Source of the DNA: Candidatus Uhrbacteria bacterium
GTDB taxonomy: Bacteria > Patescibacteriota > Patescibacteriia > UBA9934 > GWF2-40-263
Assembly (NCBI GenBank): GCA_016844925.1
Contig: JAERTI010000043.1
Location: 197,110 to 261,109, forward strand
DNA length: 64,000 nt
Direction: 5' to 3'
The translations under genes and the position numbers were made by a program. Below the pieces are notes generated by a model, which had not been told where the DNA came from, ran no database searches, and saw nothing but the letters and a program-made list of their open reading frames with translations. Below, one piece after another: positions 3,118-64,000 of the stretch. Every line of letters begins with the position of its first letter. Position 1 is the stretch's first letter.

Positions 3118-3194
3118 TGGTACACCGGGTGGGATTCGAACCCACGGCCAAGAGATTAAGAGTCTCCTGCTCTGACCAACTGAGCTACCGGTGC
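3118..3194 (-). tRNA. tRNA-Lys (anticodon CTT)
   Basis: Reverse complement folds as a cloverleaf: GCACCGG acceptor, GGAGA-CTCTTAA-TCTCT anticodon arm, GGTTCGAATCC T-arm, encoded ACCA 3' end. Confidence 0.85.
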
Positions 3195-3223
3195 ATGTCG
3201 ACGGCCTTAGTATGCCAGGAGGA

Positions 3224-3252
3224 TTGACGAACGTCAAGATATGGGCTATTAT
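3224..3252 (+). promoter_or_regulatory. Sigma70-like promoter for tRNA-Arg
   Basis: TTGACG, 17-nt spacer, TATTAT, ending 13 nt before the tRNA 5' end. Confidence 0.5.
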
Positions 3253-3264
3253 CCCCCTCGCAAT

Positions 3265-3341
3265 GCAGGCGTAGCTCAGCTGGATAGAGCACTTGTCTTC
3301 GGAACAAGGGGTCGGGGGTTCGAATCCTCCCGCCTGCACCA
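3265..3341 (+). tRNA. tRNA-Arg (anticodon TCG)
   Basis: GCAGGCG acceptor, CTTGT-CTTCGGA-ACAAG anticodon arm, GGTTCGAATCC T-arm, CCA end. Confidence 0.85.
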
Positions 3342-10478: not shown

Positions 10479-11446
10479 GGTGTTCTCCAGGATGTAGCGG
10501 TTTCCAAGCGTCGCGTGTTGCGCAGGCCGATGAGGGCACCGGGAACGCAAGGGGAATTCGTTTCGATGGCTCGAGTGAATGCGCGGAGTTCCTGCTCATA
10601 GGGGTCAACGGTTTGGAATTCGACCGGGTTGCCGTTGAGCGTAATCACTCCTGCGCCGCGAGCTCCGAGCGTTTCCGTGCACAGGATTTCTGTGGTCTTG
10701 CTTTGCACAGAAATCGTGCGAGGCTTACGGGTGATGCCGCTGACAAACATGTCGACGAGTGGTCCGTCTGTGAATGCCATTGAGATCAGTGCCTGTTCAT
10801 CGCGCTGATGGTAGATCGCATTGCTCGAAAGGATCTTGATCTCGGGGCACCCGGATTCGTCACCGGTGATGAGCCAGGTGGCCAGGTCGATCAGATGCGT
10901 TCCGAGGGCGGAGAGCACCCACCAACGACCGAGTTCCCCACGGGCACGCCAGGGGGAGTCTTCTGGGTTCATCTGGTACGTCCAGTTCATGGAGATGCGG
11001 TGTAGTTGCCCAAGGTTCCCTGAAGCAATCTGTTGCCGCAGCCACTGGTGACCTGCGTGGTAGCGCAGGTGGTAGCCCACCTGGAGACGTACGCCCGCTG
11101 CTGATCTTGTTGAGAGCATGGCCAGGGCATCGTGCTCGTTGGTGGCCATGGGCTTTTCAACAAACACATGCTTGCCAGAGTTCATCAGAGTGATGGCCTG
11201 TGCGGCATGCAGTGCATCGGGACTCGCGATGATGACAGCGTCGATGGACGGATCCTGTGCCAGGGTGTCGAGCTTTGTGTAAACACGGCCCTGAACACTC
11301 AGGCCCTTGAGGAAGGCTTCGCCACGCGTGTGTGAGCGACTGAGTACGCCACAGAGACGGGCATGTTCAATCTTGCAAAGAGCGGGGCCCAGGTGGCGCG
11401 AGGCAACCTGACCAGTGCCAATGATGGCAAAACGGATGGGTTCCAT
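10475..11446 (-). CDS. Gfo/Idh/MocA-family NAD(P)-dependent oxidoreductase
   Basis: IRFAIIGTGQVA Rossmann motif, VFVEKPMA block; GGGAGG SD upstream of the ATG at 11446. Confidence 0.7.
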   Translation of the reverse strand: MEPIRFAIIGTGQVASRHLGPALCKIEHARLCGVLSRSHTRGEAFLKGLSVQGRVYTKLDTLAQDPSIDAVIIASPDALHAAQAITLMNSGKHVFVEKPMATNEHDALAMLSTRSAAGVRLQVGYHLRYHAGHQWLRQQIASGNLGQLHRISMNWTYQMNPEDSPWRARGELGRWWVLSALGTHLIDLATWLITGDESGCPEIKILSSNAIYHQRDEQALISMAFTDGPLVDMFVSGITRKPRTISVQSKTTEILCTETLGARGAGVITLNGNPVEFQTVDPYEQELRAFTRAIETNSPCVPGALIGLRNTRRLETATSWRTP

Positions 11447-11518
11447 GGTTCCTCCCATGAGCTGACGAATCGTCATCAACTCGTGGAAAAGGCCGAGCGT
11501 GCGTAGCTCGGCGAGGGG

Positions 11519-12673
11519 TTACTTGATGGCAAGCATGCGGTCGATGCCCACCTTGGCCCGCTGGGCAACGGACCGTGGGATATGGACCACACGATCGTTC
11601 TGAAGCGGGTTGCGGGGATCGCAGCAGTCATCACACAGGATGATCTCCAGTCGGTCACCTTCCAGTTCAGCCAGGAGCTTCTCAAGCGTGCAGGCCTTCA
11701 TGTACTGACACGTGGCCTGCGCACTGACCGCATCGAAGGTCTTCTCAGGAAGCTCCTTGCGCAGGCGGTAGATCATGCCCAGCTCCGTTGCGATGAGGAA
11801 GCGCTGGGCGTTGCTTTGCCGGGCGCGGTCCAGCATCTGGCTGGTGGAGAGGAAGTAGGCGCGCTCACGAGGAATGATGCCCTGTTCGAGCTTGAGCAGG
11901 CAGGTGCTGGCACAGCCACATTCGGGATGAATGATCAGCTCGGCATCAGGATCTTCGTCCAGAGCACGCTCGGCAGCATCATCGCCGATCTTCTCGTGGA
12001 CGTAGCAGCAGGCATTCCACCCCTGGTGGTGGTAGGTGTAGATGTCGATCAGGTCTGGGTCGACACCGAATTCCACCACGGCCTTCTGGCGCATGACGGC
12101 CCCGAGGAACTTGTCGGGGGCCAACAGGATGCGTCTGCCGGGGAACTGGCGAGCGGCTTCAGCGATGATCAGGTGAGTGTTTCGGCTGGTGCAGATGTAG
12201 TCGCTGAGTGACTTGGTGTACACATCCGAGTTCACGTAGCTGATGACGATGCCCTGCGGATTTGCCTCCTTCCATTTCTCGATCCAGCGGTGACTCGTGC
12301 CGAAGACCAGGCTACAGCCGAGCACTTGCGGGCGATCGGGGACGAACACGCGCGTTGCATCGCCGGTGATGATCTTCGCGGTCGCTCCCATGAAGTAGAC
12401 GCTCTGGAAATCCACACGTGGAACGCGTCGGCGCGCGACTTCCAAGGAGAGTCCGAGAGAGTCGCCGACAAGCGCGGCAACTTCATGGAGTTCCGGGAAG
12501 ACGTAGTTGTGTGCGACGACCAAGGCATTCTTCTCTCGCGCTCGAGCTCTGATGGCTAGCGCCAGTTCCGCGAGTTCGAGGCATTTGGCAGCGGTGTAGC
12601 GGCCAGGGTAAAGATTTTCTGCGTGGGTGTTGAACAGCGTGTGCCATTGTGAGGCCAGTTCACGTGCGTGCAT
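11519..12673 (-). CDS. nadA: Quinolinate synthase A
   Basis: VVAHNY...VGDSL, VYFMGA, IIHPECGC and FLIATELGMIYRL blocks. Confidence 0.8.
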   Translation of the reverse strand: MHARELASQWHTLFNTHAENLYPGRYTAAKCLELAELALAIRARAREKNALVVAHNYVFPELHEVAALVGDSLGLSLEVARRRVPRVDFQSVYFMGATAKIITGDATRVFVPDRPQVLGCSLVFGTSHRWIEKWKEANPQGIVISYVNSDVYTKSLSDYICTSRNTHLIIAEAARQFPGRRILLAPDKFLGAVMRQKAVVEFGVDPDLIDIYTYHHQGWNACCYVHEKIGDDAAERALDEDPDAELIIHPECGCASTCLLKLEQGIIPRERAYFLSTSQMLDRARQSNAQRFLIATELGMIYRLRKELPEKTFDAVSAQATCQYMKACTLEKLLAELEGDRLEIILCDDCCDPRNPLQNDRVVHIPRSVAQRAKVGIDRMLAIK

Positions 12674-15411: not shown

Positions 15412-16983
15412 TTACCTTGCGTATTCAATGACGCGTGTTTCTCGAATAACCATGACTTTTACCTCTCCAGGATAGGAAAGTTCCGCTTCAATTCTGTTGG
15501 CAACATCTTTCGCTAAGCGATACGCCTCTAGGTCACCAATGCGCTCAGGATTAATGAATACACGCACCTCGCGTCCGGCTTGAATGGCATAGGCTTTTTC
15601 TACACCATCGAATGCACTGGCAGTGCGCTCAAGTTCTTCCATGCGCTGAATGAATTGTTCCAAGCTTTGTTTTCGTGCGCCGGGACGTGCTCCGGAGATA
15701 GCGTCTGCGGCCTTTACGATCGCGCCCTCAATGGTGCGTGGGCGGTCTTCGTGGTGGGCGATGGACTGATAGCAAAGCTCCTCAGGGAAGCCGAATTTTT
15801 TCATGATGTTATAGCCGATCTCTGGATGGGCGCCCTGCATGTCGTGATCAACGGATTTTCCGATATCATGAAAGAGACCACCTTTCCTACAGTTAAAGCT
15901 ATCAGCTCCGAGGTCATCTGCCATCATGCCAGCGATCATTCCTACCTCGATTGAGTGCTGAAGGGCATTTTGTCCGTAGCTGGTTCGGTACTTCATGCGA
16001 CCGAGAATGGAGATTAGCTTTGGATCAATGGAGCCTACGGGGATGCCAAGCTGGTAGAGAGCCTCCTCACCAGACTTACGGAGATCCTTTGCAAGCGTCT
16101 TCTTCGCATTCATGACGCACTCTTCAATGCGAGCGGGATGGATGCGACCATCTTTAATGAGCTCGTCCAAGGCACGCTTGGCAACCTGACGACGGATAGG
16201 GGAGAAGCCGCTGACGGTGATCTGTCCGGGGGTATCGTCTACGATTACCTCCGTACCGGTCAGCATCTCAATGGCTTTAATGTTGCGCCCCTCTTTTCCG
16301 ATAACACGTCCTTTCATCTCTTCATTTGGAAGATCTACTTTTGTGGTGGTTGTCTCGGTGGAGACAGGGGAGGCGAATCGACTCAGGGCGAGTGAAAGGA
16401 CTTGGCGAGATTTCTTTTCAATCTCTTCTTCGCTCATGCGCTCTGCTTTGCGCAGACGGCTCATGAGAGACTCTTCGATGTCAGCCTCTACTTGCTTGAG
16501 CAGGTGCTCTGAGGCTTGTTCTGTACTCATGCCTGCAACTTCTTGAAGCTTAGCGAGCTGTTCATCTTTGAGCCCGGAGAGCTTCTCCTTGATACCTTCG
16601 ACTTCTTTTGTTCGTTGTTCAAGTTTGGTGGTCTTCTCTTCAACCTCCATCAACTTCTTGTCGAACATGTTCTCGCGCTTTTCCAATCGACGCTGTTGGT
16701 CTTGGATATCGCGACGACGGGCCTGCTCTTCGTGCTTAGCCTCGTCGATAATTTTCAAGGCCTTCTCTTTCGCCTTGATCAGAGCGTTCTGCTCTCGGGT
16801 CTTGGTCTCCTGAAGAATCTGTTGTTGCTTGTTCTTGGCGTCGGCAAGCATTTTCTCGGCTCGCGCTTCCGCTTCGTCCGCGGTGCGTTTTGCCTTGGCC
16901 TTGCGCAGGGCGTACCCCGCAGCAATTCCTATAAGCAACGCCACTAGGAACGGGATTATTTCGGTGAACATAAAACTTCTCAC
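15412..16983 (-). CDS. rny: Ribonuclease Y
   Basis: N-terminal TM helix, coiled coil, KH domain (GRVIGKEGRNIKAIE) and HD domain (HSIEVG...HDIGK). Confidence 0.85.
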   Translation of the reverse strand: MRSFMFTEIIPFLVALLIGIAAGYALRKAKAKRTADEAEARAEKMLADAKNKQQQILQETKTREQNALIKAKEKALKIIDEAKHEEQARRRDIQDQQRRLEKRENMFDKKLMEVEEKTTKLEQRTKEVEGIKEKLSGLKDEQLAKLQEVAGMSTEQASEHLLKQVEADIEESLMSRLRKAERMSEEEIEKKSRQVLSLALSRFASPVSTETTTTKVDLPNEEMKGRVIGKEGRNIKAIEMLTGTEVIVDDTPGQITVSGFSPIRRQVAKRALDELIKDGRIHPARIEECVMNAKKTLAKDLRKSGEEALYQLGIPVGSIDPKLISILGRMKYRTSYGQNALQHSIEVGMIAGMMADDLGADSFNCRKGGLFHDIGKSVDHDMQGAHPEIGYNIMKKFGFPEELCYQSIAHHEDRPRTIEGAIVKAADAISGARPGARKQSLEQFIQRMEELERTASAFDGVEKAYAIQAGREVRVFINPERIGDLEAYRLAKDVANRIEAELSYPGEVKVMVIRETRVIEYAR

Positions 16984-17195
16984 TACCGGAGAAGCTTTCG
17001 ATGAGTCTACATTGTGGCAAAAAGGATCCTACAACAACAAATCTTCCTGCTCAGAGGAAGAAGCTGAATGAATAGCTGTGTTGTCAGCAAAAGTATGCAT
17101 AGGGAAGCTTTTCACCTTCATCGAGAAGCGTCGTCCGGACTAACTATAGAATGGTGAATTACGCCTCCGAAGCGTAGCACCGGCCCCCTTCACTG

Positions 17196-17906
17196 TCAAA
17201 GCCGTTCTAGTAAATCTTGGACGGGAATCAAAGCAGGTTCTACGGCCCCCTCAAGGCTCTTAAGAGGGTGTGATTCATCGATCGAGAACGGTCCAATGGC
17301 CGTCCGGCGGAGCTCTTGAACATAGCCACCACCCCCAAGAGCGACTCCGAGGTCTCGAGCGATGGATCGGATGTATGTGCCAGAGGAAGAATGGATCGCA
17401 ACGCGTAAAGGTTCGGTCTCCAGTAGATCGATCGAATGAATCGTTATCTGTCGAGCAGCGGCCTTCATGGGCCTGCCCTTACGAGCCTCCTCGTACATTT
17501 TCTTTCCTCCTATTTTGATGGCGCTAAAGGCTGGGGGGACTTGTTCGATCTCGCCGACGAATTGATTGAGTGCTTCAGGGGTGAGTAGTTGAGAGAGAGG
17601 GGCCTCTTGAATGTTGCCCTCGCGGTCGTCGGTATCCGAGCTCGCTCCAAGGACAAACTCCGCCTCATACTTCTTGTCAAGCCCCACAAGCTGCTGCATC
17701 TGTTTTGTCGCCGCGCGCCCAACACCAACAATCAATAGTCCGGTCGCAAACGGATCGAGTGTTCCAGCGTGACCAACTTTCCGAATGCCTGTGTAACGTC
17801 GAACACGATCCACGACATCATGACTGGTCATGCCAGCGGGTTTATCAATAAGGAGGAAGCCTTGACGATCAAGCATTTTTTTCTTAGGGTCGGGTGTCTT
17901 AGACAT
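17196..17906 (-). CDS. truB: tRNA pseudouridine(55) synthase
   Basis: LLIDKPAGMTSHDVV ... GHAGTLDPFATGLL. Confidence 0.85.
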   Translation of the reverse strand: MSKTPDPKKKMLDRQGFLLIDKPAGMTSHDVVDRVRRYTGIRKVGHAGTLDPFATGLLIVGVGRAATKQMQQLVGLDKKYEAEFVLGASSDTDDREGNIQEAPLSQLLTPEALNQFVGEIEQVPPAFSAIKIGGKKMYEEARKGRPMKAAARQITIHSIDLLETEPLRVAIHSSSGTYIRSIARDLGVALGGGGYVQELRRTAIGPFSIDESHPLKSLEGAVEPALIPVQDLLERL

Positions 17907-17965: not shown

Positions 17966-18616
17966 GTGCATGAGAACAGTCAGGCTACTGCAGCAGGAAG
18001 GAGCATGTCACTCATTGGACAGAGTTGGGAGCTCATGTCGGAGCTCGCCAAGCGTACCCCTTGGGGACGCATCAGAATTCAGCCCCTCATCGAGGACATC
18101 GGTCAGGTGAGCATGGAGTTCGTTGCGTTCCTGGAGAACGGTGGTCGCGTCTACCCCCGACAGGGTCCGGTTTTCGACTTCGACGTCGAGCCTTACATTC
18201 CGGACGGCTGGGAGATTCGTCCCGAGGATCAGATCACTAGTCGTCTGACGGGTTCTTGGCAGCTGGATGTCACGAAGGTTGGCCTGTACTCAAGCGAGAG
18301 GCAGCAGGGTCAGAAGACGGTTCGAGGCGTTGATCTCCTGTGTGAATTGGAAGGCAAGAGAGTCCTTCCTGCCCACGTGATCGAGGAGCTGCTTAAGTAT
18401 CCGGTAATGATTCCTGACTCCTGGAAGCACCGAAACGTGTATTTCTGGGGAACCGTTTATCGCGACGCTTCGGGGTGTCGGCAGATCCGAATTCTCAGCT
18501 GGACTGGCGCGCAGGGGTGGCACTGGAGTTCTCATTACCTCGAGCGTGACGATGGTACCCGTGTCATGCAAGGGCTCTGGACGAGCCAAGGGTATGCGGT
18601 ACACGTCGTAGACTAG
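17966..18616 (+). CDS. Hypothetical protein, paralogue of the 20194-20775 gene
   Basis: Shares FVxFxxNGGRV, PDGWxIRxEDQI, KVLPAHVxxxLLxxPxxIPxxWK and (V/I)YFWGTVYR blocks with the 20194 ORF. Confidence 0.5.
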   Translation: MHENSQATAAGRSMSLIGQSWELMSELAKRTPWGRIRIQPLIEDIGQVSMEFVAFLENGGRVYPRQGPVFDFDVEPYIPDGWEIRPEDQITSRLTGSWQLDVTKVGLYSSERQQGQKTVRGVDLLCELEGKRVLPAHVIEELLKYPVMIPDSWKHRNVYFWGTVYRDASGCRQIRILSWTGAQGWHWSSHYLERDDGTRVMQGLWTSQGYAVHVVD

Positions 18617-18648
18617 GACGTTCGTTTCCTACAGCATTTCGCGCATTG

Positions 18649-18695
18649 CCTCTCACAACCCGGCACGCGGGTCATGAGAGGTGTTTTTATTTTAT
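18649..18695 (+). terminator. Intrinsic terminator
   Basis: cctctca...tgagagg stem enclosing a cccg/cggg stem, followed by TGTTTTTATTTT. Confidence 0.6.
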
Positions 18696-18777
18696 TCCAA
18701 AATATTGAGGTTAATTGACACCAACCACCTCATCTAGTTAACTCCACGGCCTGAGGGACTCATAAAGGGGAGACGTT

Positions 18778-19974
18778 ATGACTCAAACAGAGCGACTGGC
18801 AAGAAATCCGCGGCTGCTCTTTTGGGGGCGTGCGTTGTTCGATGTGAAGATGCTCACCGCCGTGGTGGTGCTCTTCTATCTCCACCGGGGCGTGACCATC
18901 GACGAGGTGTTCTACCTGAGCATCGTCTGGTCCATCGCTTCTCTTCTGACGGAGGTGCCTTCCGGTTGGCTTTCCGATACGTTTGGACGCAAGCGTACCT
19001 TGCTCCTGGGAGCGGGGCTCATGGTTGCCTGTCAGGTGATCTACCTGTTCGCCCATGGCCCGCTCATGTTCATTCCCATATTCGTGTTGATGTCCGCAGC
19101 CTTCTCTTGTTTCTCAGGGACCGACGAGGCCCTGCTGTTCGAGAGTCTCAAGGCGTCCGGGCAAGAGGGGGAGATGACCAAGTTCAACGGCAGGCTCGCG
19201 TCTGCACGAACGTTGTTCAAGATCCTGACCCCGCTTATCGGCGCTTGGGTTGCCAAGGACTTGCTGGAGTGGCAGTTCCAGATCCTGATCTGGGTGAACA
19301 TCATCGCCGTGAGTGGTTCGGTGTTGTTCCTCTCTCGGCTGCACGAACCGCCTCAAGAGCTCTCTGTCTCGCAGATGGAGCTCGGGACGCTTCGTAAAGG
19401 CATCGCGACCATCAAGAGCCATCCCTGGCTCCTGCACGCGTCGCTCAACCGGACACTCCTATTCATCGGTGTGTTCATCACCTGGCGTGCGTACCAGCCA
19501 TTGGTTGTCGAGCAGGGGGTGGCCGTGGAGTGGCTCGGTGTGTTCGACTTCTTCGTCTACCTGTCTTTGTTCGCGGCCAAGTGGCACCTCGACAAGATCG
19601 TGGCGTGGATGGGCATGGCACGGTTCATGTTTGTCTCTGCGGCGACGGTCGTCTGCGCCCTTCTCGTGGCGATTCTCAGTCCGGCGGCCTGGGTTCAATT
19701 CCTGGCGCTTCTGGTTGTCATCTCGGTCGGCTCAGCGCGCTGGCCAGCATTCGCCCACGCGATAAATCACCGGATCGAGTCTGGTGCCAGGGCAACAACG
19801 CTCTCAGTACTCAACATGCTCAAGGGGGTCCTCGACATCCCCATTCTCCTGTTTGCAGGCTGGCTCGCTGGGCAAAGTCTCGTCTACTCGCTCTGGCTTG
19901 CACTAGCCCTGGCGATCATCACGATCCTCGCGTTTCCTATGCGGCAGCGCGATCTGACCGTTGAAACGGTCTAA
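18778..19974 (+). CDS. MFS transporter
   Basis: Multi-TM protein; DTFGRKRT motif. Confidence 0.7.
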   Translation: MTQTERLARNPRLLFWGRALFDVKMLTAVVVLFYLHRGVTIDEVFYLSIVWSIASLLTEVPSGWLSDTFGRKRTLLLGAGLMVACQVIYLFAHGPLMFIPIFVLMSAAFSCFSGTDEALLFESLKASGQEGEMTKFNGRLASARTLFKILTPLIGAWVAKDLLEWQFQILIWVNIIAVSGSVLFLSRLHEPPQELSVSQMELGTLRKGIATIKSHPWLLHASLNRTLLFIGVFITWRAYQPLVVEQGVAVEWLGVFDFFVYLSLFAAKWHLDKIVAWMGMARFMFVSAATVVCALLVAILSPAAWVQFLALLVVISVGSARWPAFAHAINHRIESGARATTLSVLNMLKGVLDIPILLFAGWLAGQSLVYSLWLALALAIITILAFPMRQRDLTVETV

Positions 19975-30832: not shown

Positions 30833-31576
30833 CTAGCCGGCCTTCTCCTGGGGGAGTTCGGTCTTGTAGAGGACCTTGCCGGTCAGGGGGTTGCAGACGG
30901 TGCCGTCGTCGATGGCGCCGTAGCTCCAGAACGGGTCGTTCGGGTCGTCGCCGCGAGCGCCGTAGTTCCAGAAGTGGATGTTGTCTCCGCGCTGGACCGT
31001 GAACTGGTCCTTGCGGGTCCGCGCGCGAGCGACGCCGGACTGGACGTTCTCGGGCAGGGCCATGCCGGGGCGGATGTTGAGCAGCGCGATGAGCAGGTCA
31101 CCGCGGCTGGTACGCGCCCTCCCGATCAGGGTGACCTTGCGGGTCATGGGCGCGGGAGCGTTGGTGACCACGGGAGCGCGCAGGGCGGCGTGGAGCTCGG
31201 TCATGCGGCTGATGAGCGGCTTGGCCAGGTCCAGCTCGCCGGTCACCAGCGTGCGGCCCTCGTGCCACCGCAGCTCGGCGGAGGGGTCTCCGTCGCGCAG
31301 GGCGATGGTGGTCCAGCCGATCAGGTCCGAGTGCTCGATCTCCAGGGCGAACACCTTGCCCTTGTTCTCGGTCGCGATGCGCTGGAGCGGCTTGAGGACC
31401 ACGTCCTTGAACCACTTGCTGTCCAGCAGCTCCGGGAGGGTCATCCAGCGAGCGAACATGCCCGCGACGGGCTTGCCGGCCTGCTTGAACCCCCTCTCGT
31501 TGATCATTCGCTTGTGGGACATCTCGACCGTGACGATGATGTCCTTTCCTCCGGCGGTGAACACGCGCGGCTTCAT
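30833..31576 (-). CDS. Hypothetical protein (high GC)
   Basis: 247-aa ORF, no family recognised. Confidence 0.4.
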   Translation of the reverse strand: MKPRVFTAGGKDIIVTVEMSHKRMINERGFKQAGKPVAGMFARWMTLPELLDSKWFKDVVLKPLQRIATENKGKVFALEIEHSDLIGWTTIALRDGDPSAELRWHEGRTLVTGELDLAKPLISRMTELHAALRAPVVTNAPAPMTRKVTLIGRARTSRGDLLIALLNIRPGMALPENVQSGVARARTRKDQFTVQRGDNIHFWNYGARGDDPNDPFWSYGAIDDGTVCNPLTGKVLYKTELPQEKAG

Positions 31577-31752: not shown

Positions 31753-32469
31753 CTACTTGAGGCCCATGGAGCTGGTGCGGGTGGTCCACTCGCCGATCTC
31801 GTAGACGCGGTACTCCATCAGGCGGGCGTTCCACTGCGCGCACTGGGTGGAGTTCAGCTCCGCCGAGAGGTTGCCCTCGCAGGAGAACTGGAGCGGGATC
31901 TTGTGGTTCGACTCCGCACCCTCAACCCAGAACAGCGCGACCTCCACCTTCACAGCTTCGCCGGAGAGTCCGGTGATGCTGAGGTTGGTGACGTTCGTGC
32001 TGAAGCTGGAGAACATGCCATCCTCCACGACCATCGTCTCCTGGCCGTCCACGTAGTGGACGCTGTCGAGACCGTTCACACGAATGGCGATCCGCGTCGC
32101 CTCCTTGCTCGGGAGGCCGTAGTGGAACCAGCGGATGTCGCCGAAGTCGAGCGTCTGCGACCCTTGCCCCATGTCGATGGTGAGGGGCTTGTAGGGCTTG
32201 GTCATCGGGCCGCGCGCGAACTCGGGCCAGTTCACGTCGTGGTTCTTGACCGTGACCGCGGACTGGTCGTCGTTGAACAGGTCGACGCGCACCACGCCGC
32301 GCATCTCGTCGCAGATGCGACCGAAGTTCATCTCGGCCGTGACCGCGGGGTCGATGCAGTACTGGTTGTAGGCGTTCTGCGGGTTCTGCACCGCCGGTCC
32401 TCGGTCGTAGCCACCCGCGAGGGCGACGCTGGAAACGAGGATGGCGATCAAGCTGCTGATGTAGCGCAT
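31753..32469 (-). CDS. Secreted hypothetical protein (signal peptide)
   Basis: N-terminus MRYISSLIAILVSSVALAGG looks like a signal peptide; high GC. Confidence 0.5.
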   Translation of the reverse strand: MRYISSLIAILVSSVALAGGYDRGPAVQNPQNAYNQYCIDPAVTAEMNFGRICDEMRGVVRVDLFNDDQSAVTVKNHDVNWPEFARGPMTKPYKPLTIDMGQGSQTLDFGDIRWFHYGLPSKEATRIAIRVNGLDSVHYVDGQETMVVEDGMFSSFSTNVTNLSITGLSGEAVKVEVALFWVEGAESNHKIPLQFSCEGNLSAELNSTQCAQWNARLMEYRVYEIGEWTTRTSSMGLK

Positions 32470-56827: not shown

Positions 56828-56835
56828 AAGACACT

Positions 56836-56898
56836 CCCCGGTTCGCCGGGGATTTTTGTTTGGAAAAGTAAAAACCCACCCGTCGTAGAGGGTGGGGG
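56836..56898. terminator. Convergent terminators: dtd on the + strand, nadE on the - strand
   Basis: ccccgg-ttcg-ccgggg-atttttg and aaaaacccaccc-gtcgtaga-gggtggg. Confidence 0.6.
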
Positions 56899-56904
56899 TG
56901 AGGC

Positions 56905-58866
56905 CTAGGCGGCCTCGAGGGCGTCCAGCTCGTCGAGCCAGACCTTGAGCAGGTTCACGTCCGGCGGAGCGCGCCAGTCGCCGCGGGGGGACAGCGCCAC
57001 CGAACCCATCTTGGGGCTCGAGGGGACGTTCTCCCGCTTGTACTGCATTCGGCTGAACCGCTTGTAGAACAGGCGGAGCCACTTGCGGATGGTGACCTGG
57101 TCGTAGGTGCCTTTGAAGGCGATGCCGGCCAGGAAGTCCGTCTTGGTGGCGCTGAAGCCGTGGCGCAGCAGGCACCAGAGGAAGAAGTCGTGCAGCTCGT
57201 AGGGGCCGACGATGTCTTCCGTCTTCTGTTCGATCTCCCCGGAATCGGGGCGCACCAGCTCGGGGCTGATGGGCGTGTCGACGATGTCGAGGATCGTGGC
57301 CGTGGCCTCGGGGAAGAGGTTCTTCTGCGCGACCCAGTTCACCACGTGCTTGATCAGCGTCTTGGGGATACCACCGTTGGGGTTGTACATGCTCTGTACG
57401 TCCCCGTTGTAGGTGCACCAGCCCAGGGCGATCTCGGAAAGGTCGCCGGTGCCGATCACGAAGCCCAGGTCCATGAGGATCTCGGTTCGCTCACGCGCCT
57501 GAGCGTTCTCGCACTTGAGGCACTTCCAGCACGGCTCGTGGCCGATGGCCTTGAGGCGGGCTGCCACCAACTCTTCGATGGGGATGACCTTGACGGTGAA
57601 GCCCAGAGCCTTGGGCAGGGCCGTGGAGTTGCGCAGAGTCCGCTCCGTGGTGCCGGGCCCCGGCATGGAAACGGCCGTCACGTCCTTGATGTCCCAGTCC
57701 ATGCGCTTGTACAGCTGGGCGAGCTCGAGGGCGGTGCAGGACGAATCCAGGCCGCCGGAGTTGCCGAAGACCACCTTGGGGCTCTGGCCGCGCCCCACAT
57801 GGAGCAATCGCCGGCGCAGGCCGATGATGGCGTGCATGAACACGTCATCGCAGCGTCGGTCCAGCGTCGCGGGGTTGCTGGGTACGAATGGGTGCGGGTC
57901 GATGCGTGCGTGCAAAGGCTTGTTCTTGAAGAACCAGTCGAGGCTGAAGGTCTCGACCTGTACGCGTCGCACGGGCGGGGCTTGGGCGATACACTCGCCG
58001 AAGCTGCCGGTGAAGATGCGTTCGTGGCGCAGTCGGCCGACGTCGATGTCTCGGATGAGCGACTGAGGCCCTTGCGCGAACCGTTCGGTCTGTCCGATCA
58101 CGTGCCCGCCTTGGGCGATGAGGCAGTGCCCATCGAAGACGACGTCTCCGGTGGACTCCTCGATGCCGCTGGCGGCGTAGACGTAGGCGCCGATCTGGTC
58201 GCCCGAGCGCTGCGCGATCATCTGTCGGCGGTAGTCCGCCTTGCCGATCTCGCTGTTGGATGCACTCAGGTTCACGATGATCTCGGCGCCAGCCACGGCC
58301 AGGAATGCTCCTGGCTGAATGGGGAGCCAGCCGTCCTCGCAGATCTCGACACCGAAGCTGCCGGCACACTGGCCGTCGAACATCAGGTCGAAGATCAGGT
58401 CGGTACCGACCGGCACCTCCTTGCCCAGCAGCGTCATGGTGCGCGACTTCAGGTGGCTCGCGGGCTTGAACCAGCGGGCCTCGTAGAAGTGCTTGCCATT
58501 GGCGAGCATGCTCTTGGGGATGACCCCGAGCACTTCGCCCATTTGGCAGACCACGGCGACGTTGAACAGCATGCCATCCATGACGAGCGGCATGCCGACG
58601 ACGATGACGGCCTTGACGCTCTCCGTCTTGGAGAGAAGCAAGCTCAGTGCCGCCAGAGCGGCGGTCTGCAGAGACGGCTTGAGGAACAGGTCACCGCAGG
58701 TGTAGCCCGTGAGCGAAAGCTCCGGGGTCACGATGAGCTGAACACCCTTCTCCATGCACGTGAGATCTTCGAGCTGTGCGATCTCCGCGGCATTGGCCAT
58801 GGGATCAGCAACGTGGACCGGTGGGACCACGGTAGCGACGCGGACGAATCCGAGGTTGGGTTCCAT
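56905..58866 (-). CDS. nadE: Glutamine-dependent NAD+ synthetase (nitrilase domain + NAD synthetase domain)
   Basis: N-terminal CN-hydrolase domain (VATVVPP...TPELSLTGY) and C-terminal PP-loop domain (GNSGGLDS); start set at MEPNLGF. Confidence 0.8.
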   Translation of the reverse strand: MEPNLGFVRVATVVPPVHVADPMANAAEIAQLEDLTCMEKGVQLIVTPELSLTGYTCGDLFLKPSLQTAALAALSLLLSKTESVKAVIVVGMPLVMDGMLFNVAVVCQMGEVLGVIPKSMLANGKHFYEARWFKPASHLKSRTMTLLGKEVPVGTDLIFDLMFDGQCAGSFGVEICEDGWLPIQPGAFLAVAGAEIIVNLSASNSEIGKADYRRQMIAQRSGDQIGAYVYAASGIEESTGDVVFDGHCLIAQGGHVIGQTERFAQGPQSLIRDIDVGRLRHERIFTGSFGECIAQAPPVRRVQVETFSLDWFFKNKPLHARIDPHPFVPSNPATLDRRCDDVFMHAIIGLRRRLLHVGRGQSPKVVFGNSGGLDSSCTALELAQLYKRMDWDIKDVTAVSMPGPGTTERTLRNSTALPKALGFTVKVIPIEELVAARLKAIGHEPCWKCLKCENAQARERTEILMDLGFVIGTGDLSEIALGWCTYNGDVQSMYNPNGGIPKTLIKHVVNWVAQKNLFPEATATILDIVDTPISPELVRPDSGEIEQKTEDIVGPYELHDFFLWCLLRHGFSATKTDFLAGIAFKGTYDQVTIRKWLRLFYKRFSRMQYKRENVPSSPKMGSVALSPRGDWRAPPDVNLLKVWLDELDALEAA

Positions 58867-58966
58867 GTGAGTCTCCAGTTGGAAGGTTCGTTTCAAACGT
58901 GAGAGCACGATCAGGCTTGATCTTGCGCTCGCGTAAAAGCTCGTGCGTGTCACGAGCAGGAGTGGA

Positions 58967-59659
58967 TCAAGGGGTCAAGTTTCCGAGGATCCAGGAGAGG
59001 TAGTGATCGCGTGTGTCGTCGGTCAGATTGCCAGAGATCCTCTGATCCACCATCTGGAAGAGAATCGTGGCACGCAACCACTGAGCGAACGCGAAGGTAC
59101 GAATCCCTTGGTGGACGGTGTCCGGGTCGATGAACTGGGAGATGGGCATGCGCACGCGATCGATGCGCTCACCTTCGTCCTTGTTCCCCAGGCCCGTCTC
59201 GGGTCCCGTGACCTGATCGTCCTCGACGAAGACCACGGAGAGGAAGGCTCGTTCGGCGAGGATGCCAGCCGACAAGCTCATCGAGTGACCGCCGTTGAGC
59301 ATCTGCACGTCCTCTTCGGTGATGGTCGTGCCACACTCTTCCAGCGCTTCCTTGACCAGCAGGGCCTTGGGGCCCAGGTCGACGTCGAAGCGCCCCGCGA
59401 CGGTCTCGGTTTCCGCGCCGGTGGGGTTCTCCTCCCGGCGCTGGGAGAGGTGCTCCTGGCGAATCAAGATGACCTCGCCGCGCGTGAGATCGACGAGCAG
59501 GCCGTTGACCGAGTTGCTGACCCGGACGACTTCACGGTTGAACCCGTGACCGTCGTTCCAGACCTCTACGACGCAGAAGCCTTCGTGCGCGAGAGCAACC
59601 ACCTCAGGGGGGTATTGTTCTTCGGACATGGTTCCTTCTCCAACGATGTCTCTCTGCAT
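58967..59659 (-). CDS. Nudix hydrolase (ADP-ribose pyrophosphatase-like)
   Basis: Nudix-box-like GRFDVDLGPKALLVKEALEECG; ~230 aa. Confidence 0.55.
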   Translation of the reverse strand: MQRDIVGEGTMSEEQYPPEVVALAHEGFCVVEVWNDGHGFNREVVRVSNSVNGLLVDLTRGEVILIRQEHLSQRREENPTGAETETVAGRFDVDLGPKALLVKEALEECGTTITEEDVQMLNGGHSMSLSAGILAERAFLSVVFVEDDQVTGPETGLGNKDEGERIDRVRMPISQFIDPDTVHQGIRTFAFAQWLRATILFQMVDQRISGNLTDDTRDHYLSWILGNLTP

Positions 59660-59710
59660 CGAGAGGCATCTTTGAAAAGGGGCGAGAGCGTGTCTCGCCG
59701 CCAGCGCGTG

Positions 59711-60781
59711 CTAGTACAGCACGTCGCCGTTGTGGTCCCAGTTGCGGTAGCCGTGGCCGTCGGGCTTGTGCACGATGGACTTCATCACGGTGCCGCCGTT
59801 GGCTTCCTCGCAGCGGGCGAACGTGACGTTCACGCCGTGGGAGGGATCCTTGAAGATGCCGCCGACCAGGAACACGGGCGTGCCCCAGGGGAGGGGGTTG
59901 CCCAGGCTCAGGCCATCCGGGTTGTCCGGGATTTCGGCGATGAGCTCGAACGCCTCCTGGAGGGGTCCGATGTCGATCCAGTTGTCGGCGTTCCACTGCA
60001 CGACTTCCTGGTTGCTGACCTGGTAGCTTTCGGGTCGCCAGACCTCGCGGATCACGACCATCTGCACACCCATGTCACCGAGCACACGGATGTAGTCCAT
60101 GATGTCGTCGACGTTCGCGATGCCCTCGCGGTTGATCACCAGCGAGGCACGCACGAGCAGTCCGAGCTCTCGGGCTTGCTTGATCAGCCCGATGGGGCTG
60201 TGCTTCTGCAGCATCAGCGCACGGTTTGTGTCCGGCTCGTGGTGAGCGATGGACAGCGTGATCATGGTGAGGCCGGCGTCGACCAGCTTCTTGAGCAGAT
60301 TCTCCTTGGGCATGCCCGGCAGCATCAGGTAGCCGTTGGTGTGCATGTCCACGAGCGGGACGTACTCACGTGCCGTACGGATGACGTCGATCAGGTAGTC
60401 GTCGTCCTCCTGCGTGGGGTCCGCCCGTCCGGTGAGGATGGCGTGACTGGCCCCGAGCTGCTTGGCGTAGCCGAGTCCGACGCGGAGTCGGTCCATGTTG
60501 AAGGTCTTGCGAGTGCGCGGGTCCACGTCCGTGGTTCCAGGGGTGGTGCGGCTGATGCAGAACTTGCATCCGGCCGTACAGCGAGGGTTGTCGCTCATCT
60601 GGAACGAGATCGACTGCGCGCGCATCTGGCCCGAGCCGTGTGCGATGGGACGGGACTCCTCCGGCTCCACGGAGGAGCTGGCGCGCGCGGCGCGGAGCGA
60701 GTGCAAGAACAAGGTGCCTGCAGCACGAAGCGTGCCGCGCAGGCCGAATCGGGATCGGGTCATGGCTGTCTCCTTCAGCAT
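59711..60781 (-). CDS. Radical SAM enzyme of unknown specificity with a ~50-aa N-terminal extension
   Basis: CTAGCKFC (Cx3Cx2C) motif, then G-rich and NG motifs; AAGGAGA SD 6 nt before the first ATG. Confidence 0.65.
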   Translation of the reverse strand: MLKETAMTRSRFGLRGTLRAAGTLFLHSLRAARASSSVEPEESRPIAHGSGQMRAQSISFQMSDNPRCTAGCKFCISRTTPGTTDVDPRTRKTFNMDRLRVGLGYAKQLGASHAILTGRADPTQEDDDYLIDVIRTAREYVPLVDMHTNGYLMLPGMPKENLLKKLVDAGLTMITLSIAHHEPDTNRALMLQKHSPIGLIKQARELGLLVRASLVINREGIANVDDIMDYIRVLGDMGVQMVVIREVWRPESYQVSNQEVVQWNADNWIDIGPLQEAFELIAEIPDNPDGLSLGNPLPWGTPVFLVGGIFKDPSHGVNVTFARCEEANGGTVMKSIVHKPDGHGYRNWDHNGDVLY

Positions 60782-60861
60782 CGTCCGCCCCAGGTTGGGG
60801 CAGGCGGTGAAAAGGGGCGAGGGGCATCGGGGTTGCCAATGTCTCGCCGCGTTGTGGTTGT

Positions 60862-62154
60862 TCAGACCGTCTGGAGGACGTTGTAGGTCTCCTCGTAGCC
60901 GAACACGCGCTTGTAGCGCTCGATCTCCTCGGGGTCACCGATCGCCTTGGCGATGTTGTCCGAGAGCTTGACCGTGCTGTACCAGGTGCCGCCCACGTAG
61001 CGGGCGTACCAGGGCTTGATGACCAGCGAGCGGGTCGGGAGACCCAGGTCGTTGGTCAGGTTGGTGCCCCAACCGAAGCTCACCTTGATGCGGCCTCGGA
61101 AGTGGTAGAACAGCTTCAGAATGGTCGGCAGGTCCAGGCCGTCCGAGAAGATGAGCATCTTCCCACGCGGGTCGATGCCGAAGCTCTCGTACAGAGCGAT
61201 GAGCATCTCACCGTAGGCGATGGGGTCGCCCGAATCGTGGCGGAAGCCCTTCCACTGTTCCAGCTGCTTGCGCAGGAAGTCGCGGAAGAAGGCCTTGGAA
61301 CCGAAGGTGTCGGTCAGTCCGATGGAGAGACCTTCGCCGTAGGTGGCCCACCAGATGTTCAGCATCTCCTGCTGGCTGGCGAGCAGGGCCTTGTCCGGGT
61401 CTTCTGCAGCGCCCGTGAGGGCCGCGATGATCATGGGCTTCTGGTGGCCGTTGGTGCCCATCGGAAGCAGATCGTGGAGCATGGCGGATTCGACGTTGGA
61501 CGTGCCCAGGAACTGGCCCTTCAGCACTTCGGCCATGACCTGGTCCACGTAGTGCTGCCAGGCTCGGAAGGCGCGACGGCGCGTGCCGAAGTCGCAGACG
61601 AGCAGTCCGGGATGCTTCTTGATCTCGAGGATCTTTTCCCAGAGGCGCTTCTTGCCCTCGGCAATGACCACGTCTCGCTCCAGGCGCGACATGCCTCGCA
61701 GGCTCTTGCGCGTACGCAGGCCATTGATGGATGCCAGGCCGGGGACTTCCCAGTGGATGCCCTTGGACCAGAGGCCCATGAAGCGAAGGTCGAGCTGACC
61801 TTCGGGGGTCTCTTCCAGACCGAAGGTTGGCCGCTGAAGCGTGCGAAGGTGATCCATGTACGCGGGACCGAACATCCGGTCTCCGTATTCGTCGGTGCCC
61901 AGCACGTAGTGCAGCTCGGTTCGCTTGAACCGGTCGTCTTCCAGCGTCTCGAGGGTGGCGGTCAGCTCGTCGACGTCCAGCTCTTCTGCCAGAGGAACGT
62001 CGGTGTTCCGGTTGGTCAGGCGGTAGTCGACTTCGACGTTGCCATAGTGCAGCACGATGGGTTGCCCCATCGAGTAGGTATAGAAGTCGTCATCGAGCAT
62101 GCCGCCGACGACAGGCCCTTCACATGCGGCTTCGACAAGAGGGTCGCTCAACAT
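60862..62154 (-). CDS. pncB: Nicotinate phosphoribosyltransferase
   Basis: DDDFYTYSM N-terminus, DFGTRRR and GTSN blocks typical of PncB. Confidence 0.75.
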   Translation of the reverse strand: MLSDPLVEAACEGPVVGGMLDDDFYTYSMGQPIVLHYGNVEVDYRLTNRNTDVPLAEELDVDELTATLETLEDDRFKRTELHYVLGTDEYGDRMFGPAYMDHLRTLQRPTFGLEETPEGQLDLRFMGLWSKGIHWEVPGLASINGLRTRKSLRGMSRLERDVVIAEGKKRLWEKILEIKKHPGLLVCDFGTRRRAFRAWQHYVDQVMAEVLKGQFLGTSNVESAMLHDLLPMGTNGHQKPMIIAALTGAAEDPDKALLASQQEMLNIWWATYGEGLSIGLTDTFGSKAFFRDFLRKQLEQWKGFRHDSGDPIAYGEMLIALYESFGIDPRGKMLIFSDGLDLPTILKLFYHFRGRIKVSFGWGTNLTNDLGLPTRSLVIKPWYARYVGGTWYSTVKLSDNIAKAIGDPEEIERYKRVFGYEETYNVLQTV

Positions 62155-62203
62155 GTCTTTCTCCAGGTTGATGGTACAACCCCGCGATGATGGTCATCAC
62201 GGG

Positions 62204-62264
62204 GAGAAATCTGGACTCGAGGGTCTCGAGCGCAGGTTTCTTGTAAATAGGTCGCGCCGCCGAG
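62204..62264 (-). promoter_or_regulatory. Conserved leader element, copy 1 (upstream of pncB)
   Basis: aaatctggActcgag-ggt-ctcgagCgcaggttt imperfect 34-nt palindrome plus a conserved taaatagg...ccgag flank; shared with the nadD::nadK leader. Confidence 0.5.
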
Positions 62265-62328
62265 CCGAGACGGTCTCGACAGGGCGGGCGACAGAGTTGA
62301 TCATGACACGTCGTTCGCGAGCGACGTG

Positions 62329-63771
62329 TCAGCTGGGGAAGTAGAGTCCCCGGATCTTGGCGGCCAGGTCGGTCTCGGGGAAGAAGCCGAGGGTGGCCGC
62401 GTGGGTGCGCGAGAGGCGCATGGAGATGCGGATCACGTTGCTCATGCGAACCTTGCCGTTGAGCAGAAGCTGCATGGGGCGCTTGTGAGCCTGTTCGATG
62501 TCCACGGTGACTTCATCCTGCGCGCTGAGGCGGGCGAAGTTCCAACGCTGACCACGGTAGGTGGTGCCAGCGCCGACGAGGACCATCTCGGGCGTGCCGG
62601 CCGTCAGAGGCATGCCGCCGTAGGAGCGAGCCCAGCCGGTAGAGCCGGCCGCGGTGGCGAGCATGAGTCCGTCTCCGGAGAGCCAGTCGAAGACGAGCTC
62701 GCCGTTGAGGTAGACCCTCATGGCCCCGCTCTGCACAGACTCGCCGTTGCTCATCGCGCGGATGAACGCCTCGTTGAACGCGAGTTCCTTGATCTGACTT
62801 CCATCCTGAGCCAGAGCACTGACTTCCAGCAGAGGCTGTTGGTACAGGTGCACGATACCGCGACGCAGACGCGCCTCGAGTTCATCGACGGTTCCGTCGT
62901 TGAGCAGGAAGCCGACGGTGCCGGCGTTCAGACCGATGGACGGCCGTGGGTCGCCGAGGTTTCCTTGCACGCAGTCGAGCTTGAAACCGTCACCACCAGC
63001 TTCGATCCTGTGCGTGATTGGACCTTGGGCGAGTGCGTAGACGCGATCACACATGAGTGCCAGTGCGACCTCGCGCTCGCGGCGCTTCGGATCCTTGCTG
63101 ACGTTTACCAGCACCTGCGCGCGACCAGTCAGCTTCTGGCGGACCGGTCCCAGGGCTGCACCGCTGGTGTACAGGCGCCACTGGCGCATGTATGCGGCAA
63201 CACCGCGAGAGACGAGGTGTTCGTACTCCTCGTGCAGACCGGCACAGTTGCGGATCTCCTTGCTGGAGCCGGCACGGGTGTCCTTGAGAATCAGGCTGCG
63301 CGGAGGTAGGTCGCTCTGGTTGAATCGATAGCCTGCCCTGGGCAGGAACAGGAACCGAGATTGGGACCAGAGCATCTGGCCCTTGTGCCAGCTCTTGTGG
63401 ATCTGACTGTTCTGCGTGGCGCCGTTCTCGATCAGGTCTCCACCGATGACGATCCAGACGTCGTGCCCAGCAACCTTCAGGCGCTCATGAATGTCCCAGG
63501 TGCGCTCGTACTCGTCACGCTCCAGGTCGCTTAGGTCCAGGATGATGCGCGGATCGCGATCACCGAAGGCGATGCGGCACATGTTGGCACGGTGCAGGGG
63601 AGTGGTGTCCCCGTTGCTCTCTTTGTCCGGTCGACCTCCACAGGGGATGATCAGCAGACGGTCATCGGGGGTCATGTTCTCCAGGATGATGTCCACCATG
63701 CTTTCATGGTGTTTCCCGGGCGGGTTGAAACTTCCACCGAGGAAGTAGGTCCGTCCAGACGGTGCGTTCAT
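62329..63771 (-). CDS. nadD: Bifunctional NadD-like nucleotidyltransferase / NAD kinase fusion
   Basis: N-terminus FLGGSFNPPGKHH and GSSKEIR...VAAYMRQWRLY (NadD/NMNAT-like); C-terminus AGGDGF, NAGTVGFLL, FNEAFIR...DGLMLATAAGSTGWARSYGG (NAD kinase-like). Confidence 0.65.
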   Translation of the reverse strand: MNAPSGRTYFLGGSFNPPGKHHESMVDIILENMTPDDRLLIIPCGGRPDKESNGDTTPLHRANMCRIAFGDRDPRIILDLSDLERDEYERTWDIHERLKVAGHDVWIVIGGDLIENGATQNSQIHKSWHKGQMLWSQSRFLFLPRAGYRFNQSDLPPRSLILKDTRAGSSKEIRNCAGLHEEYEHLVSRGVAAYMRQWRLYTSGAALGPVRQKLTGRAQVLVNVSKDPKRREREVALALMCDRVYALAQGPITHRIEAGGDGFKLDCVQGNLGDPRPSIGLNAGTVGFLLNDGTVDELEARLRRGIVHLYQQPLLEVSALAQDGSQIKELAFNEAFIRAMSNGESVQSGAMRVYLNGELVFDWLSGDGLMLATAAGSTGWARSYGGMPLTAGTPEMVLVGAGTTYRGQRWNFARLSAQDEVTVDIEQAHKRPMQLLLNGKVRMSNVIRISMRLSRTHAATLGFFPETDLAAKIRGLYFPS

Positions 63772-63820: not shown

Positions 63821-63879
63821 GGAGTAAAATCTGGGCTCGACTGGATCGAGCGCAGGTTTTAAATAGGCCCGCTGCCGAG
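63821..63879 (-). promoter_or_regulatory. Conserved leader element, copy 2 (upstream of the nadD::nadK fusion)
   Basis: aaatctggGctcga-ctgga-tcgagCgcaggttt with the same flanks (ttaaatagg, ccgag). Confidence 0.5.
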
Positions 63880-64000
63880 GAGGAGTACTCCAAGGCGGGC
63901 GGGCAAGGGGTGTGAACTACGAGAGTCGCTTCGCCAGGATGGCGCCGCGGGACGCCATGGTCCACAGGCCGACGTGGTGCGCGGCCTCGCGCGGGTGGCC

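Follow-up and report, generated by a model that had tools for sequence, protein, structure and literature searches.

The stretch of DNA analyzed here (64,000 nt of contig JAERTI010000043.1 from a Candidatus Uhrbacteria bacterium; called the window below) carries, close to its end, five consecutive minus-strand genes for the salvage of nicotinamide adenine dinucleotide and its phosphate, NAD(P). A sequence-only reading of this DNA had annotated them as nadE(Gln), a Nudix hydrolase gene, a radical SAM (rSAM) gene, pncB and a nadD::nadK fusion. All five open reading frames (ORFs) were found where that reading had placed them, and the Pfam and NCBIfam matches uphold the annotation. The end of the window cuts the cluster, and pncA and then nrtR continue upstream on the Logan contig L001, which matches the window without a difference over 10,464 nt (both records possibly come from the same sample; the other L-numbered loci are related loci). 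The order of the genes is nrtR, followed by pncA - nadD::nadK - pncB - rSAM - nudix - nadE, and the features present in the window are the following.

56875-56896, minus strand: intrinsic-terminator-like hairpin with a T-run, the operon end after nadE; convergent with the dtd terminator at 56835-56852 (plus strand)
56905-58953, minus strand: nadE, glutamine-dependent NAD+ synthetase (Pfam CN_hydrolase and NAD_synthase; NCBIfam NF002730)
58967-59659, minus strand: Nudix hydrolase gene (Pfam NUDIX, a weak match of 21.9 bits with a cutoff of 21.1)
59711-60781, minus strand: radical SAM protein of 356 aa (Pfam Radical_SAM; CTAGCKFC as the CxxxCxxC motif)
60862-62154, minus strand: pncB-like nicotinate phosphoribosyltransferase of 430 aa (Pfam NAPRTase_N and NAPRTase, 2.7e-43)
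62207-62239, minus strand: 33-nt imperfect palindrome AAACCTG-CGCTCGA-N5-TCGAGT-CCAGATTT in the nadD::nadK-pncB spacer
62329-63771, minus strand: nadD-like::nadK-like fusion of 480 aa (NCBIfam TIGR00482 and NF003406)
63827-63859, minus strand: the 33-nt palindrome again, between pncA and nadD::nadK
63917-64000, minus strand: 3' end of pncA (last 84 nt), the remainder lying beyond the window end

NadE has the architecture of a glutamine-dependent NAD+ synthetase, in which a glutaminase domain of the nitrilase type is joined to a PP-loop synthetase domain; the Glu, Lys and Cys motifs of the glutaminase (PELSLTGY, IPKS and EICEDGW) and the PP-loop SGGLDS are all present. It passes the equivalog cutoff of NF002730, 'NAD(+) synthase' (698.5 bits, cutoff 473). 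The longest nadE ORF encodes 682 aa; other sources give a 653-aa product with a probable start at 58866. For the Nudix gene, a 220-aa product with a probable start at 59629 is given by other sources. Its Nudix box (...GRFDVDLGPKALLVKEALEECGT) has a recognizable KEALEECG, there are weak NCBIfam matches to YffH/AdpP and NudK, and the product is probably an ADP-ribose/ADP-sugar pyrophosphatase. Nudix orthologues occupy the same operon in many related loci. PncB falls slightly below the NCBIfam cutoffs (NF003704, 355.8 bits with a cutoff of 379; TIGR01514, 247.5 bits with a cutoff of 269.55), and both of its Pfam domains are strong. PncA is an isochorismatase-family nicotinamidase of 258 aa (Pfam Isochorismatase, 29.6 bits, cutoff 27).

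The fusion protein consists of a putative adenylyltransferase of the NMNAT/NaMNAT type (residues ~1-205) followed by a complete NAD kinase fold (residues ~205-480). TIGR00482 (NadD) matches residues 11-201 over positions 2-194 of its 194 (9.3e-18; 65 bits, cutoff 112.45), and NF003406 (NAD kinase) matches residues 256-473 (4.2e-29; 101.5 bits, cutoff 211). Since the NadD, NadK and PncB matches all lie below the curated cutoffs, these proteins are divergent members of their families. The motifs GGSFNPPGxHH and GSSxEIR are conserved in 17 fusion homologues, in which GGDG, GLNAGTxGFLLN and DG..GSTGW of the NadK half are invariant. The structural model has a predicted local distance difference test (pLDDT) score of 91, and its C-terminal ~275 residues superpose on NADK1 of L. 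monocytogenes with a template modeling (TM) score, normalized to the target, of 0.77-0.79, so that both the motifs and the fold of an NAD kinase are found. The family is rare, with 26 word-sharing homologues at E<=1e-3 among 5.8 billion clusters. Its closest named relative comes from a Parcubacteria group bacterium (73% identity), and the fusion stands in an NAD operon in every context from the Candidate Phyla Radiation (CPR) that was examined (L001, L003, L004 and L030-L032). Several loci encode the two halves as individual genes of the operon. A 31%-identical NadD::NadK fusion was also seen outside the CPR (L005, 9664-13673). Its context there is planctomycete-like and includes DUF1501 and sulfatase genes; it is flanked by an HTH_3 gene and by a 709-aa protein of no family, and an NAD operon is absent. 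No published description of a NadD-NadK fusion was found in the literature searched.

The regulator gene nrtR (L001 8109-8783, ~1 kb past the window end) encodes a protein matching NrtR_WHD (2.4e-27) and NUDIX (1.3e-17), and together with two NrtR boxes it spans L001 8068-8849, ~1-1.9 kb beyond the window end. The first box is a 21-bp palindrome, TTTGTGT-N7-ACACnAA, that reads TTTGTGTATAATTGACACCAA in this lineage; in at least 14 loci it overlaps the -10 element of the promoter of nrtR. The second, TAAGTGTA-N5-TACACTTA, follows the nrtR terminator and, in the nrtR-pncA spacer of this lineage, reads TTAGTGTAATTTATACATCA. The two boxes keep their places in many related loci, and both fit the core GT-N7-AC of the published NrtR operator, which is a 21-bp palindrome (PMC2330246). 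The operon type nrtR-pncA-pncB-nadD-nadE was itself published in 2008 (PMC2330246). The presence of nrtR and pncA upstream, together with operators of the NrtR type, therefore identifies the cluster as an NrtR-controlled Preiss-Handler operon. A complete Preiss-Handler route with NADP formation, interleaved with the Nudix and rSAM genes, had been claimed from the five genes alone; gene content supports this claim and extends it by pncA and nrtR.

The operon keeps its neighbors in L003, L004/L034, L021 and L031: dtd at one end and, at the other, an acyltransferase gene, a 119-aa gene and nrtR. The identity of the fusion to that of the window is 73% in L003, 44% in L004/L034 and 43% in L031. Gene calls, a repeat scan and a tRNA scan revealed no integrase or mobility genes, no tRNA and no repeats at the operon borders. 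The named close relatives are all Patescibacteria/CPR (Parcubacteria, Uhrbacteria, Komeilibacteria, Falkowbacteria and Buchananbacteria), which fits the earlier guess of a reduced-genome host. For NadE, the closest named relatives are from Uhrbacteria (50-51% identity), with generic NadE of Acidobacteriota and Bacteroides following at 47%; no sequence from a high-GC phylum occurs among the named matches in its top 120. An array of seven paralogous proteins of ~500-555 aa is also found in the window (37543-39210 and 44087-53560, plus strand); they are 25-56% identical to one another, have a hydrophobic N-terminus and no Pfam match. Another paralogue lies across the NAD operon (L001 1218-2627), and L003 carries copies on both sides.

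We consider it likely that the block at 56905-63771 holds the structural genes of an operon for NAD(P) salvage and recycling, under the control of NrtR, and that this operon keeps a conserved position in a clade of Patescibacteria (Parcubacteria/Uhrbacteria and relatives). The gene identities, the architecture, the operators, the synteny, the distribution and the GC pattern across relatives are matters of direct observation.

That GC pattern had been taken as a sign of horizontal acquisition. The contrast with the surroundings is real, but the figures needed correction: the genes have 62.0-64.6% GC, not 65-68%, and dtd has 54.3%, not 52%. The block as a whole (63.1% GC) is ~8 points above the 2-kb windows elsewhere (54.8 +/- 2.9%, maximum 59.9%), and no other GC-rich stretch of the window is as long. 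The GC content at third codon positions (GC3) is 0.78-0.89 in the operon genes (0.88 in nadE) and 0.60 in dtd; it is rivaled by other ORFs of the window, namely 30833-31576 and 31753-32469 (minus strand, 0.94-0.95) and 3731-4444 (minus strand, 0.84). The tetranucleotide comparison that had been proposed as a check was partly favorable to the contrast: the correlation of the block with the rest (0.41) is on the low side of the mean (0.56), but it stays within the range of the window (minimum 0.33), and by this signature the operon groups with the other high-GC3 genes. GC3 is in fact bimodal over the window, with informational genes (IF-2, LeuRS, a class II aminoacyl-tRNA synthetase, RNase Y and ComEC) at 0.5-0.6 and many accessory genes at 0.7-0.95. 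The genes of very high GC3 are mostly on the minus strand, which is probably the lagging strand because the GC skew is positive throughout the window.

The excess is not a peculiarity of this genome. In 23 of 24 related loci, the GC content of the operon is above that of the flanks (mean +5.8 points, up to 12; Wilcoxon p = 6e-7), these loci being phylogenetically non-independent and having backgrounds of 33-67% GC. The nrtR gene is at background GC, and the excess begins exactly after it: in L001, L003 and L004, GC3 is 0.45-0.56 in nrtR and 0.82-0.94 in the next gene. The high GC is, then, a long-standing property of the operon across the clade and not the trace of a recent transfer. Candidate causes of the GC3 excess are exchange within the CPR with biased gene conversion, selection on codon usage or transcription-linked mutation. 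The coding strand alone was considered as a cause and rejected: nrtR has the same orientation as the operon, but its GC3 is at background. A chimeric assembly was rejected as the source of the GC step, since the same junctions are found in two records (the window and L001) and in several relatives.

The operon spacers hold further elements. The 33-nt palindrome listed above, which for the pair of copies can be written AAACCTG-GCTCGA..TCGAGC-CCAGATTT, is specific to the operon and occurs twice in the 64 kb (0 expected), once before nadD::nadK and once before pncB. L003 has it in both of these places, with a compensatory change in the stem. It folds as a hairpin and has no Rfam match. It is a candidate for the operator of a second regulator or for a 5'-untranslated-region hairpin. 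Stable hairpins with a short T-tract behind them form in all intergenic spacers of the operon (z-scores between -3.4 and -7.5), and these hairpins are kept in L003. With Rfam, searched at E<=1 for the operon and at gathering thresholds for all 64 kb, no riboswitch or other RNA family was detected in the spacers, the only hits in the whole window being two tRNAs at 3121-3338.

The unexpected member of the operon is the rSAM gene. Genome and metagenome scans gave 55 non-redundant rSAM loci. Flanking sequence of 3 kb or more is available for 39 of them, and in 34 of these an NAD gene lies no more than 6 kb away in the same orientation. At all 29 loci where the protein is at least 48% identical to that of the window, the gene is co-directional inside an NAD operon, and nadE lies within 3.5 kb downstream in 21 of them. 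A 29%-identical homologue from a sister group of ~290 aa (L028) is likewise flanked by NadE-like and NadD-like genes; the other two of the three sister-group contexts retrieved were uninformative or too short. In a divergent subclade (45-46% identity; L054 6976-14190 and L062 5872-12229), rSAM follows an RNA ligase/RtcB gene and a gene of the uracil-DNA glycosylase (UDG) family. In L054, pncB and an NH3-type nadE lie 1.2 kb downstream of rSAM; in L062 there is another, small rSAM gene, and NAD genes are absent from the vicinity. A His_Phos_1 histidine phosphatase gene is directly upstream of rSAM in seven related loci. Several related CPR operons (L014, L012, L009, L024 and L004) add genes for an ADP-ribosylglycohydrolase, a SLOG/LSDAT_prok protein, a nucleoside-deoxyribosyltransferase-like::Nudix fusion, phosphoribosyl pyrophosphate (PRPP) synthetase (prs) and IU-nucleoside hydrolases, and L004 also encodes proteins of no family at 15784-17260 and 18381-19274. 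The literature searched contained nothing that ties an rSAM protein to NAD salvage or NrtR and nothing on NAD metabolism in the CPR. To our knowledge, no radical SAM enzyme is known in NAD metabolism.

The protein belongs to the radical SAM superfamily, with a PF04055 match of 35.7 bits (gathering threshold 29.5) and invariant C67, C71 and C74. CxxxCxxC is its single cluster site, without a SPASM domain or the cysteines of an auxiliary cluster, and the only further conserved cysteines are C93 and C323. A C-terminal motif, HKPDGHGYRNWDHNGD(I/V)LY, is invariant in the family alignment. The conserved basic residues R64, R77, R210, R244, K333 and R345 would suit a phosphorylated substrate. Identity within the family is 46-88% among the best 120 of 149 matches, and rSAM is better conserved than its neighbors (62% between the window and L004, compared with 44% for the fusion). 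An exhaustive profile search gave 36 representatives at E<1e-30. The named relatives come from Uhrbacteria, Komeilibacteria, Buchananbacteria, Falkowbacteria and Parcubacteria, and no curated NCBIfam family covers the protein or its ~290-aa sister groups: it is an unnamed family found, so far, essentially only in Patescibacteria. The AlphaFold model (pLDDT 86) has MoaA, viperin and BlsE as its nearest folds, with TM scores of only ~0.5-0.6; the best Foldseek matches are MoaA (E 1e-11, query TM 0.59) and viperin (8e-10), and the best sequence matches in the PDB are the MoaA and viperin families too. MoaA, viperin and BlsE act on nucleotides or nucleosides. A reading as a prokaryotic viperin (pVip) or other defense protein was dropped, as PADLOC gave zero matches for the five operon proteins. 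Residues 1-45 (60650-60781, minus strand) form an N-terminal extension of ~45 aa, predicted with low confidence as a helix; few family members have it, and most begin near a conserved HGSGQMRAQS.

From these elements a working scheme can be drawn. We infer the enzyme activities, the regulation by ADP-ribose and the rSAM substrate, the pathway steps being taken from established family functions. PncA would convert nicotinamide to nicotinate, and PncB would form nicotinate mononucleotide (NaMN) from nicotinate and PRPP. The NadD-like domain would adenylylate NaMN, or nicotinamide mononucleotide (NMN), to nicotinate adenine dinucleotide (NaAD), or NAD. NadE would amidate NaAD to NAD with glutamine-derived ammonia supplied by its glutaminase domain, and the NadK domain would phosphorylate NAD to NADP. 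The Nudix enzyme probably cleaves ADP-ribose, a by-product of NAD consumption, to AMP and ribose-5-phosphate, and the latter could be returned for the synthesis of PRPP. ADP-ribose is a known anti-repressor ligand of NrtR; the operon would therefore turn on during NAD consumption, and removal of ADP-ribose by the Nudix enzyme would damp the NrtR signal as a negative feedback. The rSAM protein is a conserved but dispensable accessory, our best guess being an enzyme of the MoaA/viperin type with an NAD-pathway nucleotide as its ligand. It would abstract a ribose hydrogen from this ligand, for which NaAD, NAD(P), ADP-ribose and mononucleotides are candidates, and the radical step could feed, repair or divert the pyridine-nucleotide pool ahead of NadE. 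Tentatively, we propose that rSAM catalyzes a hitherto undescribed radical reaction, with a pyridine or adenine nucleotide from NAD metabolism (NaAD, NAD(P) or ADP-ribose) as the substrate, and that the rare nadD::nadK fusion is part of the same lineage-specific rewiring.

A number of observations weigh against an NrtR-controlled salvage operon as outlined here. The NadD half, the NadK half and PncB are all below their curated cutoffs, as noted. In the (H/T)xGH motif of the adenylyltransferase, the first His/Thr is replaced by Gly in the fusion (PGxHH), with GSSxEIR kept; the GSFNP of the fusion resembles the eukaryotic NMNAT motif. The NadD and NadK steps are not consecutive, which makes for an odd fusion unless the adenylyltransferase also accepts NMN. 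As to regulation, no NrtR box was found before the internal genes of the operon, and in this lineage the pncA promoter region is not overlapped by the NrtR boxes, which are located upstream of it. The rSAM gene is missing from the closest relative, L003, as well as from L030 and L032, and is therefore dispensable for the core route; in its most divergent subclade, NAD genes are nearby in just 5 of 10 loci. Lastly, the persistent GC3 excess is explained at the level of candidate causes only.

A different history could be imagined, in which the operon is resident, its genes were repeatedly exchanged among Patescibacteria, and the GC excess is a by-product of this exchange, whether through GC-richer CPR donors or through GC-biased gene conversion. 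We regard this as possible but on the whole unlikely. Single-gene turnover does occur inside the operon: between the window and L003, the flanks and some operon genes are 59-82% identical (NrtR 79%, Dtd 82%, fusion 73%, Nudix 62%, PncB 59%), but NadE is only 38% identical and the genes at the pncA position have no detectable similarity, so that pncA and nadE have been replaced in one relative to the other. The presence of rSAM in the window and its absence from L003 point the same way, as does the fusion of NadD and NadK in some loci and their separation in others. The affinities of PncB (L003 59%, L018 56%, L008/L021 35%) also conflict with those of rSAM (L018 50%, L008/L021 67-68%). Exchange alone, however, does not predict a GC shift in one direction, and no locus was seen in which the operon is clearly GC-poorer than its flanks. 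Moreover, the orthologues that were not replaced (fusion, PncB and Nudix) are rich in GC3 in the window and in L003 alike. What survives of the idea of horizontal transfer is a gene-by-gene replacement within the operon among CPR lineages.

Another explanation would have the cluster serve, beyond NAD salvage, a pathway leading to a modified pyridine or adenine nucleotide, with new specificities for rSAM and for the divergent PncB-, NadD- and NadK-like proteins. NaAD could, for example, be converted to NaADP before amidation, or rSAM could make a carboxylated intermediate that NadE would then amidate; QueE and QueC provide the analogy for the latter. The subthreshold scores and the altered HxGH motif would suit such a pathway, as would the tight linkage of rSAM, which is mostly directly upstream of nadE, and the ADP-ribosylglycohydrolase, SLOG, histidine phosphatase and nucleoside-deoxyribosyltransferase-like::Nudix genes of relatives, which typify the metabolism of nucleotide derivatives. 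NadE, however, is above its equivalog cutoff, and the regulator and operators are of the NAD-regulon type. Operons without rSAM exist, and small CPR genomes need one housekeeping set of NadD, NadE and NadK, of which no second copy was found within the 64-kb window searched. We therefore hold this explanation to be improbable.

That rSAM is a functionally unrelated passenger, such as a maturase for another protein, is highly improbable in our view. Some operons do lack it, the divergent subclade has it beside RtcB/RNA ligase and UDG genes, and L062 has it away from NAD genes. Against this stand the 29 out of 29 loci within NAD operons, spread over several CPR classes and with the gene order otherwise shuffled, and the 29%-identical homologue that also sits between NadE-like and NadD-like genes. 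The protein, moreover, lacks SPASM, twitch and peptide-recognition domains, and its nearest folds act on nucleotides.

The view of the sequence-only reading, that a five-gene island from a high-GC phylum was recently inserted beside dtd in a lower-GC host, deserves almost no credence: the elevated GC (~8 points over the window mean, in its longest GC-rich stretch), the GC3 contrast with dtd and the lowish tetranucleotide correlation agree with it, but rSAM and the fusion are essentially CPR-only, NadE is nearest to Uhrbacteria, both flanks are syntenic in relatives down to 44% fusion identity, the GC excess is common to 23 of 24 orthologous loci and stops at a resident regulator gene, the tetranucleotide value is inside the window range with the block resembling other high-GC3 genes, and mobility genes, flanking tRNAs and direct repeats are absent. 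The usual signs of a genomic island are thus limited to the deviating composition, with neither absence of the block at the locus in relatives nor mobility or repeat marks. Families essentially confined to the CPR, a conserved locus, a clade-wide GC excess and the bimodal GC3 of the window together lead us to conclude that a recent import is not supported.

An ancestral NrtR-type operon thus remains our preferred explanation, and the organisms that carry it give it some interest. Patescibacteria are ultra-small and largely uncultured bacteria, thought to depend on partners for most of their building blocks, and the upkeep of the NAD(P) pool is central to this dependence. A whole clade appears to keep a dedicated salvage and recycling operon, predicted to respond to ADP-ribose and to cover all steps from nicotinamide to NADP. 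The window also encodes a divergent NadA homologue (11519-12673, minus strand; Pfam 1.5e-65; NCBIfam 223 bits, cutoff 294) beside a GFO/IDH/MocA oxidoreductase (10475-11479) and a 340-aa protein of no family (9528-10550), the GC3 of the three genes being 0.71-0.75. Matches to the NrtR box near this nadA-like gene are at chance level only. No nadB or nadC was seen within the 64-kb window, and a NadA homologue without them there bears on whether the host relies on salvage alone. Should rSAM indeed use an NAD-pathway nucleotide as its substrate, NAD metabolism would gain its first radical SAM reaction or a new metabolite derived from NAD; as a single cluster-binding protein of ~315 aa, rSAM is a tractable target. 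The GC3 excess, which ends sharply at the regulator in genomes of 33-67% GC, shows that compositional contrast alone mis-calls horizontal transfer here.

In comparison with known systems, this is a known operon type with additions; its interest lies in the linkage of rSAM to NAD genes, the NadD::NadK fusion and the clade-wide GC3 anomaly. The NrtR-regulated Preiss-Handler operons described previously (PMC2330246) likewise have a regulator made of Nudix and winged-helix domains beside pncA, pncB, nadD and nadE, and a 21-bp GT-N7-AC palindrome, one copy of which lies over the regulator's own promoter. Unlike those operons, this one has nadD fused to nadK and so takes in NADP formation, and its internal genes include one for a catalytic Nudix protein and one for an rSAM protein; in relatives, prs and genes for nucleoside hydrolases, an ADP-ribosylglycohydrolase, a SLOG protein and a histidine phosphatase are added. 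The 2008 survey of NrtR (PMC2330246) did not include Patescibacteria, the group of the present host. Two activities of the NAD pathway on one polypeptide are also found in other bifunctional NAD enzymes, such as NadR (NMNAT and ribosylnicotinamide kinase), NadM-Nudix and the archaeal NADP phosphatase/NAD kinase, whose model NF010678 is among the NAD kinase models that the NadK half of the fusion matches. The domain pair differs from all three, being NadD-like with NadK.

The rSAM protein, for its part, has in common with MoaA (GTP 3',8-cyclase) and with viperin/pVip (nucleoside triphosphate 3'-deoxy-3',4'-didehydro synthases) the partial TIM-barrel core of radical SAM enzymes with an N-terminal CxxxCxxC. 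It lacks the C-terminal Cys triad of the auxiliary cluster of MoaA, scores 25-35 bits with TIGR02666/TIGR02668 (cutoffs 284-325) and stands in a context of NAD salvage rather than molybdopterin synthesis. In contrast to viperin/pVip, it has neither an NF038283 nor a PADLOC match, and its neighborhood is again NAD salvage, not defense. Its C-terminal motif HKPDGHGYRNWDHNGDILY sets it apart from both MoaA and viperin.

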